Assembly: GCA_019326865.1 (NCBI GenBank)
Contig: GCA_019326865.1_4101.1
From: a phage
DNA length: 64,000 bases
Strand: one strand, 5' to 3'
The position numbers were made by a program, and so were the translations under genes. Positions 9,149-35,319 of this stretch are shown piece by piece. Every line of letters begins with the position of its first letter. Position 1 is the first letter of the stretch. Below the pieces are notes generated by a model. It was given only the letters and a program-made list of their open reading frames with translations. It did no database searches and was not told the origin of the DNA.

Positions 9149-10129
9149 ATGGCTAAAAAAATTAATGAAGCACAAGTTAAAATCGATATCGCAGGTTTAG
9201 AATCTGATGATTTGGAAACACTATCCCGTATGTTAGCTCTTGCTGGTCAAGCTGAACGTCAAGACCCTGTGGTTGCTGCTCCAGTATCATCTATTGGGTC
9301 TATGGCTCCATCTCTACCACCTATTGCACCACTAGATCTTGATTCTATTAGTGCCGAAAAAGAAATTGGTGGAATTGAAACTTCAGTTGAAGATCCATTG
9401 GCAGCAGCAGTTGATGGTCTTTCCGCTGATGATGGTGATTTTGGTGCTGACACCGATGAAGTTGGTATTGATGCTGAATTTTCAGAACCAGGCGTAGAAG
9501 GTGAAGAAGATTTTTCTCTTGACCTTAGTGGTCAACCTCAACTAGAATCAGTTGAAGAAGACGACGATGAGGAAGAAGAAATCATCGAAGAAGAATTCGA
9601 TTTTAGTCGTATGCTATCTCTTGCTGGTATTAACGAAGAAGAAGACGACGATTTTTCCGTAGAGGGTAATACTGCTACTGATAGAGAAATGAAAGATACT
9701 CAATTTCTACCAGATCTAAGTATCTCTGAAGATGAAGAACCATCTGACAGTACTGATTATGGTCCATATAATACTGAAGTTGATGCAGTTCGTGATGGTC
9801 AACTTAAGACTAATGGTGTTGAAGGTGATCATTTTGTTGTAATTGCGAAAGGGAACCAGTTTTATTGGAGACGTGTTGTAGATGAAGATGTTGACAATCG
9901 TCCAGAACCAGAGTATTATGACAATGAAGGAAACGAAAATCGCGTTCATAAATTTGAACCAAAATCTCCAGGTACTGCATTAGGAGATAACCCACTCAAT
10001 GTTAATGAAAGTGAAGAAGATGATTCACCAGAAGGTAACACTGACTTGGAAGATGACTCTGATGAAGAAGTAGAAGATATTTTCGAAAGTCTCCAAGAAA
10101 AATATAAAAAATTTTTAGGAGACAAATAA
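9149..10129 (+). CDS. highly acidic hypothetical protein (D/E-rich)
   Basis: Long runs of D/E (EEDDDEEEEIIEEEFDF, SEEDDSPEGNTDLEDDSDEEVEDIFE). Confidence 0.5.
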   Translation: MAKKINEAQVKIDIAGLESDDLETLSRMLALAGQAERQDPVVAAPVSSIGSMAPSLPPIAPLDLDSISAEKEIGGIETSVEDPLAAAVDGLSADDGDFGADTDEVGIDAEFSEPGVEGEEDFSLDLSGQPQLESVEEDDDEEEEIIEEEFDFSRMLSLAGINEEEDDDFSVEGNTATDREMKDTQFLPDLSISEDEEPSDSTDYGPYNTEVDAVRDGQLKTNGVEGDHFVVIAKGNQFYWRRVVDEDVDNRPEPEYYDNEGNENRVHKFEPKSPGTALGDNPLNVNESEEDDSPEGNTDLEDDSDEEVEDIFESLQEKYKKFLGDK

Positions 10130-10130
10130 T

Positions 10131-10526
10131 ATGCAATATAATTATCGTGAACTAGTTGAAGCGTTGGACGAAATCACCGGACGAGATGAAGAAGGAAGTT
10201 TTTCCGTTGAAGTTGATTCCGATGTTGTAGCAATTGATGTTCTTAAAGATATTACCAAATGTCTCGTTGATATTGTTGATAAGATTAAATCTGGTGAAGA
10301 TCAAAAAGAAATCGTTGATAAACTACAAAAAGCATGTGACATTTTGTCTGACATTCGATATAATGATGAAAGTACTGAAGTCGATGATGATGAAGTGATG
10401 GAAGCTATTGCTGGATGTTTTGGAACTGAAGGTATGGGTCCAACGATTGACAAAGATGGCGTACAGCACTATAATGAACCAGATGCACCATCTTATGCTG
10501 CACGCCAAGGTTATGTTGGAGACTAA
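10131..10526 (+). CDS. acidic hypothetical protein
   Basis: ORF overlapping previous stop (ATAATATG); D/E-rich. Confidence 0.45.
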   Translation: MQYNYRELVEALDEITGRDEEGSFSVEVDSDVVAIDVLKDITKCLVDIVDKIKSGEDQKEIVDKLQKACDILSDIRYNDESTEVDDDEVMEAIAGCFGTEGMGPTIDKDGVQHYNEPDAPSYAARQGYVGD

Positions 10527-10531
10527 AATAT

Positions 10532-10912
10532 ATGTTTCCTGTACCATCACATAACAGTACTGAATATCAAAATGATGTACTTTCCAAAGTTAGGGAAGTA
10601 CATGAATCAGATTCAGAAATAACAGACCGTATGCTTCTGATGTCAATTTTTGAAAATTTCAGAACTGGCGGTGGTTTACGTCTTAGCAAGTTTGGGTATG
10701 GAATTTGTAAAGAAAATAATCTTTATGAATTTACAAAAATCCCCTTGCAAAGAGAATTTAAAAGTTCTATAATGTTTACATCACTTGACAGAATATGTAC
10801 TTCACCTTATTATGTTGAAGGTCAGTACATATATCTGACAGATGCAATGATAATAACTGAATTAACATTGTGTTGTGATGATTTTAAACAATTATTTTCT
10901 ATTCATATGTAA
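10532..10912 (+). CDS. hypothetical protein
   Basis: ORF in operon. Confidence 0.4.
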   Translation: MFPVPSHNSTEYQNDVLSKVREVHESDSEITDRMLLMSIFENFRTGGGLRLSKFGYGICKENNLYEFTKIPLQREFKSSIMFTSLDRICTSPYYVEGQYIYLTDAMIITELTLCCDDFKQLFSIHM

Positions 10913-10924
10913 GAAAAATAAATG

Positions 10925-10952
10925 TTGACAAGATAGAATGATGTGATATAAT
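10925..10952 (+). promoter_or_regulatory. sigma70-type promoter P1 (TTGACA-N16-TGaTATAAT)
   Basis: Consensus -35 TTGACA at 10925-10930, extended -10 TGATATAAT at 10944-10952. Confidence 0.65.
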
Positions 10953-11017
10953 AAGCATCAGACATAAAGTTTTCAAGCGACACAAGATGTGAGTTTGAAA
11001 AAAATAAAAAAAAGTGA

Positions 11018-11045
11018 TTGACAAGTTGAAACGATGTGATATAAT
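11018..11045 (+). promoter_or_regulatory. sigma70-type promoter P2 (TTGACA-N16-TGaTATAAT), tandem copy of P1
   Basis: TTGACA at 11018-11023, TGATATAAT at 11037-11045; same gATGTGATATAAT core as P1. Confidence 0.65.
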
Positions 11046-11145
11046 GTTCACATCAAGGCAGCAAAGAGATTTACCTTTTTAAACACACGGATGATTCATG
11101 AAGTAATAAAGGAACTGATAAGTTAAATTATTTTAACACAGTTCC

Positions 11146-11174
11146 TTTACTTTTGCCCACGGATTGGCTATAAT
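11146..11174 (+). promoter_or_regulatory. promoter-like element P3 (TTTACT-N17-TATAAT)
   Basis: TATAAT at 11169-11174 with TTTACT 17 nt upstream; 42 nt before the AAA+ gene start. Confidence 0.4.
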
Positions 11175-11215
11175 AGAAACTTAAACGATTTTATCCAACA
11201 AAAGGAAATATATAC

Positions 11216-12541
11216 ATGACTACTCAAAACGATATCCTGAATGTTAAACTGACTCCAAAGAAAGCTAAAGAAGCAATGGCACTAGCTGACATGATTCAAG
11301 ATAGCCTGATGATTTGGGGTAGCCCAGGTATCGGTAAGTCTGCAATTGCTCGTCAATACGCTGATGAAAATTACCCTCTGCGTAAAGATAACGAAGCTAA
11401 AATCGAGTTCATGAAACAACAAATTGAAGCTGACCCTGAAAATGCTGATCAGCTACGCCGTGAACTGGCTGCATTTGAAGCTAAACTAATCGACCAAGAT
11501 ACTAACTTCATCGATTTCCGTTTGTCTCAAATTGAACCAAGTGACCTCCGTGGTATCCCTGTACCAGAGAAGCTTTTCCGTAAAACTGACGGTTCTCTTC
11601 TCAAAGAATCTGAGCTTGCTGAAGCAAAAGATTATGTTGCTGAAACTGCTGTAGTTTGGGCTGCACCTAAAGTGCTGAAATTGCCAGAAGATTGGAAAGG
11701 GGTTATTCTGTTTGACGAAATTAACTCTGCAATGCCAATTGTTCAGGCAGCGTCTTATCAGCTAATCCTCGACCGTTGTGTTGGTGAGATGAAGCTACCT
11801 AAAACTGCACTGATTCTTGCAGCAGGTAACCGTGAAACTGATGGCGGTGTAACGTTCTCACTGGCTACACCACTACGTGACCGTATGACACACATTGAGA
11901 TGATTCCTTATCATCAAGATTGGATTAACGATTATGCAATTGGTAAACGTTTGAACCCAGCAACTGTTGCGTTCATCAACAACACAGGTTCTAAGTACTT
12001 TAACACTCTTAGCCCACAAGATCCTTCTCACAGTGGTGGTACTTCTCCACGTTCATGGGAAGCTGTAGCACGCTACGAAGATCTCAAGAAAACTAAGACA
12101 ATTGATAAAGAAGTGTTCCGTGCAATGATTGCTGGGCGTGTAGGTGAAGGTGTAGCAACTGAATACATTGAGTACGTTGATAACGTTGCTAAACTACCAG
12201 ATACTATGTCTATTCTGTCTGGTGAAATCAAAGATATCGATGCAACTCTTGATATTTCTGCGAATTATTTTATTACTTTGAACTTGGTTTATAAAATTAT
12301 CGACCTGTTCAATGAGAAGCAAGAACAACGTCTACCAGTGGAAGAATGGGGTAAACTGTGCAACAACTTCATTACCTTCCTTGACCATAACTTCTCTGCA
12401 ACTCAAGCAGAACTGGCAGTTCTGGCAATTCGCACCATTACGCTTCATAAGGTTGCGATTTCCATTAAAGATGTACCAGCGTTTAAAGATTTTATCGCTA
12501 AGTACTCTGAACTAGTTCGTAAAGCACGCTCTCTTGGGTAA
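11216..12541 (+). CDS. MoxR-family AAA+ ATPase (single AAA module)
   Basis: Walker A GSPGIGKS, Walker B VILFDEIN, sensor-1-like ILAAGNRETD; RBS aaaggaaat; own terminator. Confidence 0.8.
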   Translation: MTTQNDILNVKLTPKKAKEAMALADMIQDSLMIWGSPGIGKSAIARQYADENYPLRKDNEAKIEFMKQQIEADPENADQLRRELAAFEAKLIDQDTNFIDFRLSQIEPSDLRGIPVPEKLFRKTDGSLLKESELAEAKDYVAETAVVWAAPKVLKLPEDWKGVILFDEINSAMPIVQAASYQLILDRCVGEMKLPKTALILAAGNRETDGGVTFSLATPLRDRMTHIEMIPYHQDWINDYAIGKRLNPATVAFINNTGSKYFNTLSPQDPSHSGGTSPRSWEAVARYEDLKKTKTIDKEVFRAMIAGRVGEGVATEYIEYVDNVAKLPDTMSILSGEIKDIDATLDISANYFITLNLVYKIIDLFNEKQEQRLPVEEWGKLCNNFITFLDHNFSATQAELAVLAIRTITLHKVAISIKDVPAFKDFIAKYSELVRKARSLG

Positions 12542-12560
12542 TTAACAAAGAGTGGTTGAC

Positions 12561-12596
12561 AAGAAGGATACGATATAGTATCCTTCTTTTATCTTA
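12561..12596 (+). terminator. intrinsic terminator (aagaaggata / tatccttctt stem + T-rich tail)
   Basis: 10-bp perfect inverted repeat with 8-nt loop right after AAA+ gene stop. Confidence 0.65.
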
Positions 12597-12615
12597 ACTA
12601 AACGAGGAAATATAC

Positions 12616-14040
12616 ATGTCGGATAACAAATCTTCATCTAAGTTTAATGAAGTATCACCAGAACTCCAAAAGGAATGTCAAGATCGATTGGTTCTGGCTC
12701 GTACATCTTTGATGTTAACTGCTCCGTTCTTTGGTGTTTTGGCTTCGCGTTTACGTCCTGTTCCTAATAATACATGGTGTCGTACACTAGCAGTTGATGG
12801 GAAACATTTATTCTACAATGTAGAATTTGTTATGGGCATCCAAGATCAATCTAAAAAGAAAGAGTACGAAGATGCTATTCGTGAAAAACATCCAGAGGTT
12901 ACTGATGAACAATTAAAAGAAATGACAGAAGGTCTGACAGATGAAAACCTCATTGCAGTGATTTGTCATGAAATTTTGCATTGTGCTTACGACCACTTCC
13001 TTCGTCGTGGAATGCGTGATCCACAACGATACAATCGTGCAGCAGATTATGCAATTAACCAAATTATTGTCCGTGAGAAAATTGGAAAAATCCAAAGCTC
13101 ATGGTTATATGATAAAAAATATGAAGGAATGACCGCTGAAGAGATTTATATTCTTCTGGAAGATGAAGAACAAAAAGAAGAAGGTGAAGGGAACGGTCAA
13201 CCACAAAGCGGTGGTGGTGAAGGTGAAGGTAAAAATCGCGGAACTTTTGGTGATATCAAAGATGGTAAGGGTAAACCAAAAGGTACAACAATTGACCAAC
13301 ATGACGTTCCACAAGAAGGCCAAGACGGTGGTTCAAGTGAACAGCAAAAACGCGATTATATGGATGATTTCAAAACAGCAATGATGAATGCTGCACGTGC
13401 TGGTGGCACACCAGCAGAAATCGCTCGTATGATTAATAACTTCAAAGAACCAAAGATTGATTGGCGTTCTAAACTTCAACGCACTCTTCGTAGCTGGTTG
13501 AAGTCTGATGCAACTTATCAAAATCCAGCACGTCGTTCATGGGGTGCAGGTTTTGGTTCTAATGGTTCATTTTATGGTAATCCAATTTATCCAGGGATGA
13601 AACCAGATGATGATATTGATATTGCAATTGCACTCGATGCTTCTGGTTCTATTTCCGAAGACATGCTTCGTGATTTTATTAGTGAAGTTCTTGGTATCAC
13701 TAAACAATTTAAACAGTTTAAAATTCGTATCATGACATTTGATACTGAAGTTTATACTGTAAAAGATTACAAAACTGGTGAAGAACGTAAGATTCTGGAA
13801 TATCCAGTAAAAGGTGGTGGTGGTACTGACTTTGAAGCAGTATGGGTTCATATGAAGAATGACAACTATAAGCCTAAACAGCTTGTAATGTTTACTGATG
13901 GTGAACCGTGGCAGTCATGGGGTGATCCTAACTACTGTAAAACACTGTTTGTGATTCACAGTAACCCAAATAAAGTTGCACCATTTGGTGAAACAGTACA
14001 CTACGAGTATGAAGCAGACAAAAAACGTCAACGTAGTTAA
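12616..14040 (+). CDS. VWA-domain protein with N-terminal HExxH metallopeptidase-like domain
   Basis: HEILHCAYDH (HExxH) in N-terminal half; MIDAS motif IALDASGSIS plus downstream GGGGTDF in C-terminal half; glycine/lysine-rich linker. Confidence 0.75.
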   Translation: MSDNKSSSKFNEVSPELQKECQDRLVLARTSLMLTAPFFGVLASRLRPVPNNTWCRTLAVDGKHLFYNVEFVMGIQDQSKKKEYEDAIREKHPEVTDEQLKEMTEGLTDENLIAVICHEILHCAYDHFLRRGMRDPQRYNRAADYAINQIIVREKIGKIQSSWLYDKKYEGMTAEEIYILLEDEEQKEEGEGNGQPQSGGGEGEGKNRGTFGDIKDGKGKPKGTTIDQHDVPQEGQDGGSSEQQKRDYMDDFKTAMMNAARAGGTPAEIARMINNFKEPKIDWRSKLQRTLRSWLKSDATYQNPARRSWGAGFGSNGSFYGNPIYPGMKPDDDIDIAIALDASGSISEDMLRDFISEVLGITKQFKQFKIRIMTFDTEVYTVKDYKTGEERKILEYPVKGGGGTDFEAVWVHMKNDNYKPKQLVMFTDGEPWQSWGDPNYCKTLFVIHSNPNKVAPFGETVHYEYEADKKRQRS

Positions 14041-14052
14041 GTACTAAATAAT

Positions 14053-14084
14053 GAGAACGGAAATTTTCCGTTCTCTTCTTTTAT
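14053..14084 (+). terminator. intrinsic terminator (gagaacgga-aattt-tccgttctc + T-run)
   Basis: 9-bp perfect stem followed by ttcttttat. Confidence 0.75.
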
Positions 14085-14086
14085 AA

Positions 14087-14116
14087 GTGAGACAACTCAC
14101 AAAAATATGATATAAT
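14087..14116 (+). promoter_or_regulatory. promoter (GTGAGACAAC-N11-TGaTATAAT class)
   Basis: Extended -10 TGATATAAT at 14108-14116; upstream GTGAGACAAC box recurs with identical spacing at 63017. Confidence 0.55.
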
Positions 14117-14151
14117 AGTTATTGTACCAATATACATGGAGAGTATTAAAA

Positions 14152-14397
14152 ATGGAACAAGAAAATAATCAAATTCAACTAACCCTTCTAGACCTAATCA
14201 ATGCAGCAAAAATCATGGAAGCTGCTGTTGCCCGAAATACATTTAAAGTTGAAGAACTCGTGGATGTTTCCCCAGTTGTCGCCAAATTTGTTTCTTTTGC
14301 AAATGAAGCACTTGAAGATATTAAAGCTCAAGAAGACGCTGCTAAAGAAGAATCTGAATCACAAGATATTAAAGCTCAAGAAGATAAAGGAGAATAA
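14152..14397 (+). CDS. small acidic hypothetical protein
   Basis: ATG with RBS ggagag 9 nt upstream (listed ORF begins at 14122); C-terminal DIKAQED repeats. Confidence 0.5.
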   Translation: MEQENNQIQLTLLDLINAAKIMEAAVARNTFKVEELVDVSPVVAKFVSFANEALEDIKAQEDAAKEESESQDIKAQEDKGE

Positions 14398-14399
14398 TT

Positions 14400-15056
14400 A
14401 TGGCAGCTATTCGTCATGTTGGTGTAATGCGTAATACAGGTTCACGTGTTTTTGTTGTTTGGCGTTCACTACCAGATGATCCTGACCACTGCCTTATTGT
14501 TTATCGTGATTCCTTACCAGAAGCATATGTTCATGCAGTAACTGATATTGTGATGGGTCATGGTCAATCAAACATTGATTTGTGGGAAGTAATGCATAAA
14601 ATTGGTTACCTGGATGGTCGTAAAATGCTAGATGTACTACACAATATGCAACATTTACGTCGAGTTCGCACTTGTGATATTGATATGCATACTGGTGGTA
14701 ATAATAAAATTTCTCTTGATGTTCTAAACAAAGCATTAGATGAAAATCAAGCGAAAGTACAAGAAGATGGTAAAGTAAAAGACTTTAACCCATTTAACCC
14801 ACAAGAAGTAGACACAAAAGTGGAAGAAGCAACTATTGTTGAACAACTTATCTCTGACGCTAAAAAATATGAAAAACTTGCCCAAGAGCACTATGAACGT
14901 GCATACAATTTAGAGCCAAGTTTGCGTCCACAGACACAAGTTGTTGAGCAACCGAAAGACAGTAAGACCATTTATCTAGAAATTCCAGAAGGTATTTCAC
15001 AGACTAAAGCTATTGAGAAAGTAAAACAACTATTTGCAGAACGTAAAGCAAAATAA
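14400..15056 (+). CDS. hypothetical protein
   Basis: ORF coupled to neighbours. Confidence 0.5.
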   Translation: MAAIRHVGVMRNTGSRVFVVWRSLPDDPDHCLIVYRDSLPEAYVHAVTDIVMGHGQSNIDLWEVMHKIGYLDGRKMLDVLHNMQHLRRVRTCDIDMHTGGNNKISLDVLNKALDENQAKVQEDGKVKDFNPFNPQEVDTKVEEATIVEQLISDAKKYEKLAQEHYERAYNLEPSLRPQTQVVEQPKDSKTIYLEIPEGISQTKAIEKVKQLFAERKAK

Positions 15057-15059
15057 AAT

Positions 15060-15653
15060 ATGACAAAGAATGAATTAGATGAAGCAATTAAAGGTTTATC
15101 TAATGTATGTTTTAGTGGCGGGGCAGCAGGTGCTGACCGCCTTTTTTCTATCTATGCAAAAAATAATGGATTTGAAGTTATTAATTTTTCATTCAAAGGT
15201 CATGTGCATAGTGTAGATGAAAGTACTATATTAGAAATACCACCCAATATTCTATCTGATATTTCTATATTAAATCAACTAAATATTGCATGTTACTCGT
15301 TACAGCGAAAAGTTCCAAAGCCTGGCTCCTATGTTTATAATTTACTTGCAAGGAATAGTTATCAGATACTTAATACAGAAAGAATATATTGTATTGCAAA
15401 TATCACATCACCAACTAAGGTAAGTGGTGGTACTGCATGGGCAGTACAGATGTATATGGATTCAGTTGAAAATCCTGAAATTTATTGTTATGATATGAAT
15501 TCACGTTCTGTGTTTTACTTCGACACAGTTCTGAAAGAGTTCAAACAATCATTAGTGGTTCCACCACCACATGGTAACTGGACTGGTATTGGTTCACGCA
15601 ATGCCACAGAAAAACATATGCAACATTTTATTACATTTTTCAAGGAAGTATAA
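15060..15653 (+). CDS. hypothetical protein with glycine-rich FSGGAAGADRLF motif
   Basis: ORF; motif reminiscent of Rossmann-type nucleotide-binding loops; stop overlaps thyA start (TAATG). Confidence 0.45.
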   Translation: MTKNELDEAIKGLSNVCFSGGAAGADRLFSIYAKNNGFEVINFSFKGHVHSVDESTILEIPPNILSDISILNQLNIACYSLQRKVPKPGSYVYNLLARNSYQILNTERIYCIANITSPTKVSGGTAWAVQMYMDSVENPEIYCYDMNSRSVFYFDTVLKEFKQSLVVPPPHGNWTGIGSRNATEKHMQHFITFFKEV

Positions 15654-16582
15654 TGAAACAACTACAAGAACTATATCAAAAAATTCTAGATGAAGGCGTA
15701 GAAAGCGTTGACCGTACTGGTGTTGGAACAATTAAACTTATTGGTCAACAAATGCGTTTTGACCTTAAAGATGGTTTCCCAGCCGTGACGACAAAACGTC
15801 TAGCTTGGAAAGCAATGACTTCAGAATTACTATGGTTTATTGAAGGTTCCCATGATGAACGTCGCCTTTGTGAAATTTTGCATGGAACTCGTGATACAAA
15901 AAAGAAAACTATTTGGACAGATAATTATCTAAATCAAGGTGTTGCTCTTGGTTATACTGATGGTGAGTTGGGTCCAGTGTATGGTAAGCAATGGCGTGAA
16001 TGGGAAGATTATAAATTTAGTTCCAGAACTGAAGAAATTCAAGAATTAAAAGATAAAGGATACAAAGTTATCGATTATACTGGTTCACATGGTGTTGTTA
16101 TGAAACGTACAACTGACCAATTACAGGAACTAATCAAAGGTATAAAGTCCGATCCATATGGTCGTCGCCACATTCTAAGTGCATGGAACGTTGGTGAGCT
16201 TGATGATATGACGTTACCACCTTGTCATAGCTTTGTGCAATTTTGTGTAGTACAAGGGAAACTAAGCTGCATTCTACATCAACGCTCCGCTGATCTTTTT
16301 TTGGGAGTTCCATTTAATATCAGTAGTTACTCACTACTAACTCATATGATTGCACAAATTACTGGTTTAGATGTTGGTGAATTTATTTGGAATGGTGGTG
16401 ATTGTCACATTTATAAAAACCACGTTGAACAAGTAAAAGAACAACTACTGCGAGAACCCCGTGAATTACCTGAATTGTGGCTTGATCCTACAATTACTAA
16501 TATTGAAGATTTCACAATGGATTCTTTCAAATTAGTGAATTACAACCCAATGCCAACAATTAAAGCACCGATGGCTGTATAA
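15653..16582 (+). CDS. thyA: thymidylate synthase (T4 td-like)
   Basis: Active-site LPPCH, DRTGVGT, ELLWF, RRHILSAWN, QRSADLFLGVPFNI, C-terminal PMAV; close to T4 td as recalled. Confidence 0.95.
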   Translation: MKQLQELYQKILDEGVESVDRTGVGTIKLIGQQMRFDLKDGFPAVTTKRLAWKAMTSELLWFIEGSHDERRLCEILHGTRDTKKKTIWTDNYLNQGVALGYTDGELGPVYGKQWREWEDYKFSSRTEEIQELKDKGYKVIDYTGSHGVVMKRTTDQLQELIKGIKSDPYGRRHILSAWNVGELDDMTLPPCHSFVQFCVVQGKLSCILHQRSADLFLGVPFNISSYSLLTHMIAQITGLDVGEFIWNGGDCHIYKNHVEQVKEQLLREPRELPELWLDPTITNIEDFTMDSFKLVNYNPMPTIKAPMAV

Positions 16583-33817: not shown

Positions 33818-35319
33818 TCTGTATCCTTATGTATACGATATGCAGTATTTGGTTTAACTGCGTCATGTAATGGGACTTTATTATCACTATTTACGAACTT
33901 AGTAAGTGCCAAGTCTGCACCTTCCCATGGTTTTCTACCACCATAATCAAAAATAACCCATGAATTCTTTGTTGCATTGAATTCCCATAACGTAACTGGT
34001 GTATAATCGGTGCGATAAAAATAATCCCCATCAACAGCATCAGTAGGGAACATATTTCCTTCTGGAACAGTTCCTCTAGCGGGTGGAATTTTCGGTCGAT
34101 AATCCTGTTGGGCATCAATATTTCCATATACACTATTTGATGAGAATGGTTCATTAACATAGGTTACTTTTGGCTCGCCCCATTTATCATCATTGTACTG
34201 AAAAATGTGTGGTTCTTTATAAAAAATACAAAAATCTTCAATATTTTGCGGTGGGATATCACTTGTAGTATATTCTACATCACAATTTAACCATTTTTTA
34301 GCACTTTTGTCGTACTGATACAACGTATACCCAGTCACATCTGCATCATTTTCTTTAAAGAAAAAATCCCCATCCATTGGTTTTTTTGGAAAAACTGTTC
34401 CACGCTTGACTTCCAGTGAAATCCATGTATCATTGTCATACTCTTTGAGAACTGGGTACGTTTTTTTCAAAAAATACATACCATTAGCAGGTTCTTCTGG
34501 AAAATCATAACCGTTGAGCATATATTTAGATAAATCCACAGTATCGCGGCGGTCATCATACAAATGCTCGTTTGTATAATGGATATAAGGTACTTCATCA
34601 TCAGCTTGCATAATAATACGGTTCATAATATCCATTTCATTACTATAATTACTGTTTTCGGACGTACCATCGGTTGTGTTTCCATTACCATTATTTGGAT
34701 CATTTGGGTTATCTGGGTAATTATTGTTCCCCAGTAAGTCAGAGTACTCAGGTGAGTCAGTTAGTGGTTTTACTCTAAGTTTGTAAATGTGGTGTTGCCA
34801 CGTTACAGAGTAACCTTCGGCTGTACGAAATGCATCTTGTACCACATAGAAGCGATTTAGACCAGAATCTTTACCAAGTACATCATAATCACGCAAATTT
34901 GGCAATTCTATTACATCACCAGGCATGATTTTCCTGCCTAATCGTTGCATCATGGTATTGTAATGAATTGTGATGTCCATTGTGTTAAAATTAAAGAACA
35001 ACCCTGGGATTTTCAAGTCAGGGGTTGCTTCTTGGACTTGATAAACACAACTAAGTGTGATTGCTTCAAGGTTATAGCTTCGATTTGGTGTGTCTCCAAA
35101 AATTAAATCACCAATACTTGACACAACCGTACCGGAAGATGTATAATCACCGCCATATGATAAGTCATTGCTATCCGCAACTTGTTTTGGACCAACATAA
35201 GCGTAAAGCCACATGTCCACTCCACCTATGTTGTATTGTTCAGCAATTGCAGAGTCAATGAACTTGTAATCATTTGTTCTACCTTTTTTCCACATTCTAT
35301 ATGTCATATTTGTCTCCAA
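33814..35319 (-). CDS. hypothetical protein
   Basis: ORF overlapping downstream gene by 4 nt. Confidence 0.5.
   Translation of the reverse strand: METNMTYRMWKKGRTNDYKFIDSAIAEQYNIGGVDMWLYAYVGPKQVADSNDLSYGGDYTSSGTVVSSIGDLIFGDTPNRSYNLEAITLSCVYQVQEATPDLKIPGLFFNFNTMDITIHYNTMMQRLGRKIMPGDVIELPNLRDYDVLGKDSGLNRFYVVQDAFRTAEGYSVTWQHHIYKLRVKPLTDSPEYSDLLGNNNYPDNPNDPNNGNGNTTDGTSENSNYSNEMDIMNRIIMQADDEVPYIHYTNEHLYDDRRDTVDLSKYMLNGYDFPEEPANGMYFLKKTYPVLKEYDNDTWISLEVKRGTVFPKKPMDGDFFFKENDADVTGYTLYQYDKSAKKWLNCDVEYTTSDIPPQNIEDFCIFYKEPHIFQYNDDKWGEPKVTYVNEPFSSNSVYGNIDAQQDYRPKIPPARGTVPEGNMFPTDAVDGDYFYRTDYTPVTLWEFNATKNSWVIFDYGGRKPWEGADLALTKFVNSDNKVPLHDAVKPNTAYRIHKDTE

Follow-up and report, generated by a model that had tools for sequence, protein, structure and literature searches.

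Jumbo-phage counterparts of N4 gp24 and gp25: a predicted MoxR-type ATPase and VWA-zincin machine with a possible part in particle assembly

What does a jumbo coliphage do with an AAA+ ATPase encoded next to a protein that joins a HExxH motif to a VWA domain? The question is raised by a stretch of phage DNA of 64,000 nucleotides (NCBI GenBank assembly GCA_019326865.1, contig GCA_019326865.1_4101.1), here called the window, in which two adjacent plus-strand genes encode such a pair (Table 1). A first-pass annotation made from the letters of the window had proposed an early, strongly expressed system for host takeover, anti-defence or virion maturation. Judged by sequence comparison the pair are the jumbo-phage orthologues of N4 gp24 and gp25, and most likely they make up a two-part ATP-dependent remodelling and processing machine whose most likely clients would be the phage's own particle or assembly proteins, during morphogenesis or maturation; we give this reading as a whole a probability of roughly 45%. 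Its molecular part, a MoxR ring with a VWA/MIDAS adaptor to which a zincin is tethered, is well supported, and the choice of clients is the part that is read from the surroundings of the genes and from published proteomes. By its sequence the phage is placed in the genus Asteriusvirus, among the 121Q/RaK2-like jumbo coliphages (myophages): positions 10900-14100 are 99.9% identical to Escherichia phage UE-S1 and around 94% identical to 121Q, PBECO4 and phAPEC6.

The domain make-up of the VWA-zincin protein is given by two Pfam families, both far above their curated cut-offs, namely PF13203 (metallopeptidase-like, DUF2201_N; 120.3 bits against 23.2) and PF09967 (VWA-like, DUF2201; 75.1 bits against 26.4). 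The two motifs seen in the first-pass annotation both fall within the reading frame of this gene, HEILHCAYDH at residues 118-127 and DASGS at 341-345. Across 31 VWA-zincin sequences, reaching down to around 35-40% BLASTP identity, H118, E119 and H122 are invariant, and likewise invariant are D144, D227 and H229, which include a conserved DxH motif and are candidates for the third zinc ligand. The window protein also has a complete MIDAS (DxSxS...T...D) on a VWA fold. A sequence-profile search of the PDB gave marginal HExxH and VWA matches. Proteolysis would be the activity to expect from such a combination of motifs.

The gene goes under a variety of names in GenBank ('HNH endonuclease', 'Zn-dependent hydrolase (T4 gp25-like)', 'DNA repair ATPase', 'homing endonuclease'), none of which is supported by profile searches. 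The HNH label, given to PHROG 1314 and to many GenBank records, is a propagated misannotation: no HNH family is seen in Pfam at E-values up to 0.1, and DUF2201_N and DUF2201 account for the whole protein. The 'T4 gp25-like' label is probably a mix-up with N4 gp25, and the 'anti-sigma factor' feature listed under some rV5-like matches is, in JLBYU08, the label of a neighbouring gene. An identity of the pair with the cobaltochelatase subunits CobS/CobT was also rejected, neither family appearing in Pfam at the same E-value limit and nothing of the kind in NCBIfam, which gave no useful match for either protein.

The ATPase carries GSPGIGKS at residues 35-42 and ILFDEIN at 164-170, again as first annotated, and the residues of Walker A and B, of sensors 1 and 2 and of the arginine finger are all there. 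Among 34 homologues K41/S42, D167/E168, N205, R223 (in LRDRM) and P278-R279 (in SPRSW) are invariant or nearly so, and we take LRDRM and SPRSW to be the MoxR 'DRF' and 'SPR' motifs. The fold is nearest to solved MoxR-clade members, and the sequence-profile search of the PDB matched the Walker A region and nothing else. Hydrolysis of ATP is predicted for this protein, and it would presumably form a hexameric ring.

How far is such a pair already known? The module is already annotated and published, which the first-pass annotation had missed. BLASTP connects the two proteins to N4 gp24 and gp25 at 2e-29 each, and GenBank names in related phages are already in place (phAPEC6 has 'MoxR ATPase' and 'N4 gp25-like protein', K64-1 has 'gp24-like/gp25-like', and Muenster carries notes to this effect). 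The 14-gene core that N4-like phages (Schitoviridae) have in common includes gp24 and gp25, and they share their gene order, HExxH and MIDAS with the jumbo-phage pair, although in the jumbo-phage ATPase the Walker A helix is followed by an insert of around 40 residues (predicted to be helical) and there is a longer beta insert, and the VWA protein has an extra segment of around 35 residues and an acidic Gly-rich linker. The flanks differ as well, being structural genes for the window pair and nucleotide-metabolism genes in N4. Iyer, Anantharaman, Krishnan, Burroughs and Aravind (2021, Viruses 13:63; PMC7824862) described, as a chaperone-cochaperone-peptidase system, a MoxR / vWA-metallopeptidase pair of the same architecture in 'group 2.2' jumbo phages, and proposed virion assembly with peptidolytic processing by analogy with tail development of the Acidianus two-tailed virus. 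The 121Q-like phages may belong to group 2.2; the paper itself has no regulatory, linkage or proteomic analysis and draws no tie to N4 gp24/gp25. What the present analysis adds is the wider cassette, a pair of conserved terminators, a comparison of codon use between hosts and a connection with proteomes already published.

Of the better known MoxR-VWA systems, p618 (MoxR) and p892 (VWA) of the Acidianus two-tailed virus are, as cited by Iyer et al. (PMC7824862), a virus-encoded pair tied to particle morphogenesis, and the ATPases of phAPEC6 and PA5oct are likewise found in virion preparations. The Acidianus pair, however, is from an archaeal virus and has no zincin domain, and the likeness is drawn from the domain types and the reported role. 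The bacterial remodellers CbbQ-CbbO and NorQ-NorD share only around 15% identity with the phage pair; CbbO and NorD have no protease domain, and their clients (Rubisco and nitric-oxide reductase) are absent from phages.

The linkage of the two genes is close and widespread. By tblastn 578 phage records contain the VWA protein and 809 the ATPase, and the same lineages carry both, that is RaK2-like, PA5oct-like, rV5-like phages and their relatives, N4-like phages and others. Of 80 IMG/VR loci gathered with the VWA profile, 78 have the ATPase upstream and on the same strand, mostly with a gap below 130 nucleotides, and the two exceptions are one locus with no ATPase within 10 kb and one with a flank too short to judge. 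Closeness is also seen in N4, in the N4-like phiA41 (two small genes between) and in PA5oct-like phages, where three small genes and a homing endonuclease are inserted and the pair is 2.9 kb apart. In one rV5-like genome a 'putative MoxR ATPase', so called by annotation only, is around 3.6 kb from the VWA gene and on the opposite strand.

Where and how transcription of the pair starts is a less simple matter than the first-pass annotation had it. The two tandem near-consensus promoters that it described are in fact both perfect (12/12) with an extended −10, and its third promoter-like element is there too, matching at 10/12. Perfect sigma-70 sites number four in the window against 0.22 expected from shuffles, the other two (TTGACA-N17/18-TATAAT) being at 10447-10475, inside the coding sequence of the 131-residue virion protein gene, and at 35118-35147. 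P1 is shared by 121Q and the RaK2-like Muenster locus, and a promoter with TGTGaTATAAT or TGTGGTATAAT occupies the P2 position in eight RaK2-like lineages; the tandem duplication is confined to Asteriusvirus, with a partial form in RaK2-like phages. The −35 is TTGACA in the window, whereas CBB-like phages carry a 'TGAAACG' element instead, overlapping the stop codon of the upstream gene, and the CBB promoter at the P2 position belongs to the 'TGAAACG' promoter class (PMC5259590).

Between these promoters and the ATPase start codon lies a hairpin followed by a T-run, absent from the first-pass annotation, which is predicted to be a terminator or attenuator. The leader region (window 11046-11215) was compared with loci L002, L006-L008 and L010-L015, and the hairpin is present in 8/8 RaK2-like lineages examined, with compensatory changes in its stem (GGAACTG/CAGTTCC, GGCACTG/CAGTGCC and AGCACTGA/TCAGTGCT); the CBB and GAP32 versions are canonical terminators. 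The order is fixed in all eight: extended −10 promoter, leader of 35-65 nucleotides, terminator hairpin, around 55 nucleotides, ATG. On either side of the hairpin an A(C/T)GGAT motif (around 11088-11095 and 11160-11166) is kept in the eight lineages, and its GGA may resemble CsrA sites. A leader peptide behind the conserved 'ATGGAT' was considered and rejected, as the position of the ATG against the conserved GGAT varies and SE_PL lacks an ATG at this place, and Rfam gave no match for the leader region. The leader terminator is not general, being found in 1 of 72 loci of a distant IMG/VR clade.

Because a conserved terminator stands between the tandem promoters and the ATG, a position under tandem promoters is not equal to simple strong transcription of the genes. 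The strong promoters fire into the terminator, and so expression would come about by read-through, by regulated antitermination or from the weak downstream element, the −10 of which is TATAAT in the window and TATAAC in others and which, as a third promoter-like element, keeps its −10 in close relatives only. The layout could give an attenuator or a small RNA of 55-110 nucleotides, and early and strong transcription is not something that can be read from sequence here.

Each gene is followed by a hairpin of its own with a T-run, as had been noticed at first. The one between the genes starts a few nucleotides past the ATPase stop and is found in the window, 121Q, Muenster, SE_PL and CBB with unrelated stems, at the same place in five RaK2-like genera, and in PA5oct also. 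A terminator-like hairpin occurs at this place in 50 of 67 adjacent pairs, as against 20 of 600 random segments of 200 nucleotides (3%). The hairpin after the VWA gene carries a terminator annotation in UE-S1 and Muenster.

Codon use sets the ATPase apart from the other genes. Among 42 open reading frames of the window it is highest in third-position GC content (GC3; 0.32, around 0.20 in other window genes), in the CTG share of Leu (0.34, with a median of around 0.03) and in optimal-codon fraction (0.59). The enrichment in CUG and CGU codons first judged by eye thus stands for CTG; the CGT share of Arg (0.80) is high, but not unique. The window is that of an E. coli phage, and the shift recurs in the ATPases of the Klebsiella phage Muenster (CTG 0.76 of Leu, around 0.1 in neighbours) and the Pseudomonas phage PA5oct (GC3 0.67, around 0.2 in neighbours and 0.51 in the VWA gene), although not in that of the Pectobacterium phage CBB, which has no codon signal and is like its neighbours. 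The VWA gene is intermediate in the window, Muenster and PA5oct. Because the codon shift tracks each host, selection for high expression is a better explanation than recent transfer. The intercistronic terminator and the stronger codon adaptation of the ATPase together suggest that more ATPase than adaptor is made, and such an excess would fit a ring with a single adaptor, at a ratio of about 6:1.

Proteomes give a second line of evidence. Caesium chloride-purified phAPEC6 virions yielded six peptides of the ATPase gp265c, with 19% coverage (PMC7247149), and the PA5oct ATPase is flagged as seen by electrospray ionisation tandem mass spectrometry in its GenBank record. With the host-ward codon shift in several lineages this makes strong expression of the ATPase plausible. 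Virion structural genes surround the pair in every RaK2-like genus examined.

From these features a course of action can be proposed. The ATPase would assemble as a MoxR-type AAA+ ring and the VWA-zincin protein would dock on it via the VWA domain, the MIDAS metal site holding an acidic residue of the client, as in CbbQ-CbbO, NorQ-NorD and midasin. The N-terminal zincin, with its HExxH and conserved DxH, would then cut the client after its exposure by the ATPase, and expression would be tuned to far more ATPase than adaptor-protease. Four things favour clients in assembly or maturation: the setting among structural genes, the signals of bulk expression, the virion proteomics and the Acidianus virus precedent. 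Of the options first put forward for the pair, virion maturation is accordingly the one towards which the proposal of Iyer et al. and the virion proteomics lean, with its target unproven.

A number of observations weigh against this assembly role or the assignments underlying it. The ATPase is below the curated Pfam cut-offs of AAA_3 (PF07726; 16.3 bits against 27) and AAA_5 (PF07728; 15.6 against 22), although homologues at 31-37% identity do have precomputed PF07726/PF07728 matches. The VWA-protease is absent from the phAPEC6 virion list, and thymidylate synthase is on it with three peptides (PMC7247149); with ThyA in the same preparation, the ATPase peptides may therefore be mere carry-over of an abundant soluble protein. 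The CBB proteome annotation marks neither protein as a virion protein. The promoters are of the sigma-70 type and not a T4-like late motif, in N4, gp24/gp25 are reportedly transcribed as middle genes, and their neighbours are nucleotide-metabolism genes (dCTP deaminase, gp30, rIIA/B). In 15 of 81 loci (14 from IMG/VR and one JGI metagenome), and in the window also, ThyA or ThyX is encoded 1-4 kb downstream of the VWA gene. A literature search on DUF2201, phage MoxR-VWA and N4 gp24/gp25 found no functional study; nor did it find a transcriptome of a RaK2-like phage, and the main text of the CRISPRi-ART paper does not mention gp24/gp25-type genes. N4 middle-gene status, sigma-70 promoters and recurring nucleotide-metabolism neighbours together mean that early or host-directed and enzyme-maturation roles stay alive.

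If the pair were an early protease for host takeover or anti-defence, the host sigma-70 polymerase would fire the tandem promoters as infection begins, and the machine would unfold and cleave a host defence, transcription or envelope factor. The two perfect sigma-70 promoters, the presence of a promoter there in all RaK2-like lineages, the fact that N4 gp24/gp25 are not late genes and the conservation of the pair in unrelated virulent phage families are in keeping with such a role. We nevertheless consider it unlikely: the conserved terminator separates the promoters from the ATG, PADLOC gave no match, extreme codon adaptation and virion detection suggest a bulk need, and the pair is core and vertically inherited (as in the 14-gene N4-like core) and lies among structural genes, unlike a variable accessory system. 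Of the 'early, strongly expressed' system first described, strong expression is thus plausible from codon use and virion detection, and early expression is not established, given the leader terminator and the N4 middle transcripts; together with the PADLOC result these also leave host takeover or anti-defence without direct support. Maturation of an enzyme in the phage's DNA or nucleotide metabolism, by metal insertion or remodelling (compare NorQD, CoxDE and CbbQO) with the zincin removing a propeptide or inhibitor, seems to us quite improbable, since no client enzyme is common to all lineages that carry the pair, and virion co-purification and bulk expression would not be expected of a catalytic maturation factor. 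The neighbours that suggest it are the thymidylate synthases, a recurrent DprA-like/SLOG gene, the dCTP deaminase and thymidylate-synthase-like gene of N4, and a T4-type RNase H/FEN-like gene upstream in around 61 loci (identified by eye only), a linkage that could be plain module synteny; the CBB promoter type at the P2 position is also tied by its authors to DNA-synthesis genes (PMC5259590).

Another reading makes the pair an NTP-dependent system for conflict or superinfection exclusion, borne by the phage and of the vWA-MoxR type that Kaur et al. 2020 described; the MoxR and vWA core is common to both (PMC7159879). This is very improbable: no PADLOC model matched, strictly lytic phage families have the pair in their core, and neither effector nor sensor domains can be recognised in the neighbouring families c9, c2 and c3. 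That the proteins are ordinary CobS/CobT cobaltochelatase subunits or an HNH endonuclease has database labels in its favour and is, after the Pfam and NCBIfam searches above, practically excluded. The assembly and maturation machine keeps its place as the preferred reading, at the probability given at the outset.

The pair does not stand alone. Clustering of the open reading frames that neighbour it in 81 loci defines three families, c9 upstream and c2 and c3 downstream (Table 1), for which no Pfam, PDB or named relative is seen. There are at least 2822 metagenomic relatives of c3, none named and none with a Pfam domain, and its phAPEC6 counterpart gp262c gave one peptide in virion mass spectrometry. 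Both c2 and c3 adjoin the VWA gene in PA5oct-like phages too, on the opposite strand, and in the two further loci tested, one N4-like (phiA41) and one rV5-like, neither was found adjacent to the pair. The thymidylate synthase further downstream is ThyA in some loci and the non-homologous ThyX in others (L009, L022, L036, L062, L072, L086 and L088), and its proximity may reflect module synteny or a functional link. N4 likewise has the nearby thymidylate-synthase-like gp30.

In RaK2-like phages the 197-residue GGAAGAD protein is kept between the cassette and ThyA. The window ThyA (15653-16582) is a plain protein of 309 residues, like that of 121Q, and that of UE-S1, the nearest GenBank record (12754-14307 of its locus), has 517 residues, with an in-frame insertion of around 208 residues that has the look of a homing endonuclease; the window phage is therefore a mosaic relative of UE-S1 and not UE-S1 itself. 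Upstream of the pair, the counterpart of the acidic 326-residue protein, gp267c, gave one peptide in phAPEC6 virions.

Table 1. Genes and predicted regulatory elements in and around the ATPase and VWA-zincin pair (window positions)
Feature	Position	Strand	Description
Acidic protein	9149-10129		326 aa, extremely acidic (Asp/Glu-rich), low complexity; virion structural protein in relatives (PHROG 15988)
Virion protein gene	10131-10526		131 aa
c9	10532-10912	+	126 aa, PHROG 15638; upstream of ATPase in 59/81 loci; profile of 59 IMG/VR loci matches window ORF at E 1e-9
Promoter P1	10925-10952	+	TTGACA-16-TGaTATAAT, 12/12, extended −10; predicted start near 10959
Promoter P2	11018-11045	+	TTGACA-16-TGaTATAAT, 12/12, TGAAACG in spacer; predicted start near 11052
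Leader hairpin (predicted terminator or attenuator)	11108-11158 (hairpin 11108-11148)	+	AAAGGAACTG / 21-nt loop / CAGTTCCTTT, then ACTTTTG T-run; between promoters and ATPase ATG
Third promoter-like element	11146-11174	+	TTTACT-17-TATAAT, 10/12; overlaps leader T-run
MoxR-clade AAA+ ATPase	11216-12541	+	441 aa; N4 gp24 orthologue, phAPEC6 gp265c, 121Q gp563
Intercistronic terminator-like hairpin	12561-12595 (hairpin 12561-12588)	+	AAGAAGGATAC / GATATA / GTATCCTTCTT, then TTATCTT; between ATPase and VWA genes
VWA-zincin protein	12616-14040	+	474 aa; zincin (HExxH, DUF2201_N) and VWA/MIDAS (DUF2201); N4 gp25 orthologue, phAPEC6 gp264c, 121Q gp564
Terminator after VWA gene	14053-14085 (hairpin 14053-14075)	+	GAGAACGGAA / ATT / TTCCGTTCTC, then T-run
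c2	14152-14397	+	81 aa, acidic, PHROG 13789; around 290 nt downstream of VWA gene in 77/81 loci; profile E 3e-18
c3	14400-15056	+	218 aa, PHROG 15894; downstream in 75/81 loci; profile E 6e-67
GGAAGAD protein	15060-15653		197 aa, GGAAGAD motif; weak YspA/SLOG Pfam match; PHROG 768 'DprA-like DNA recombination-mediator'

A bolder view, which we regard as speculative and doubtful, would place the pair at the heart of a bigger, so far unrecognised cassette (c9, ATPase, VWA-zincin, c2 and c3) in thousands of uncultured large phages, and the pair itself an abundant and partly virion-associated split AAA+ protease with its subunit ratio set by the conserved intercistronic terminator. In RaK2-like phages the strongest promoters would then fire into a leader terminator flanked by GGAT motifs, as an attenuator gating expression or as the source of a separate abundant small RNA of around 55-110 nucleotides.

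Genes of the gp24/gp25 type recur in rV5-like, RaK2-like and PA5oct-like phages and in many uncultured ones. If the pair is an ATP-driven protease or chaperone needed in bulk, then it would serve a general, perhaps essential, step in infection by large phages, and as such it would be a candidate for explaining assembly or host manipulation in phage families of therapeutic use.

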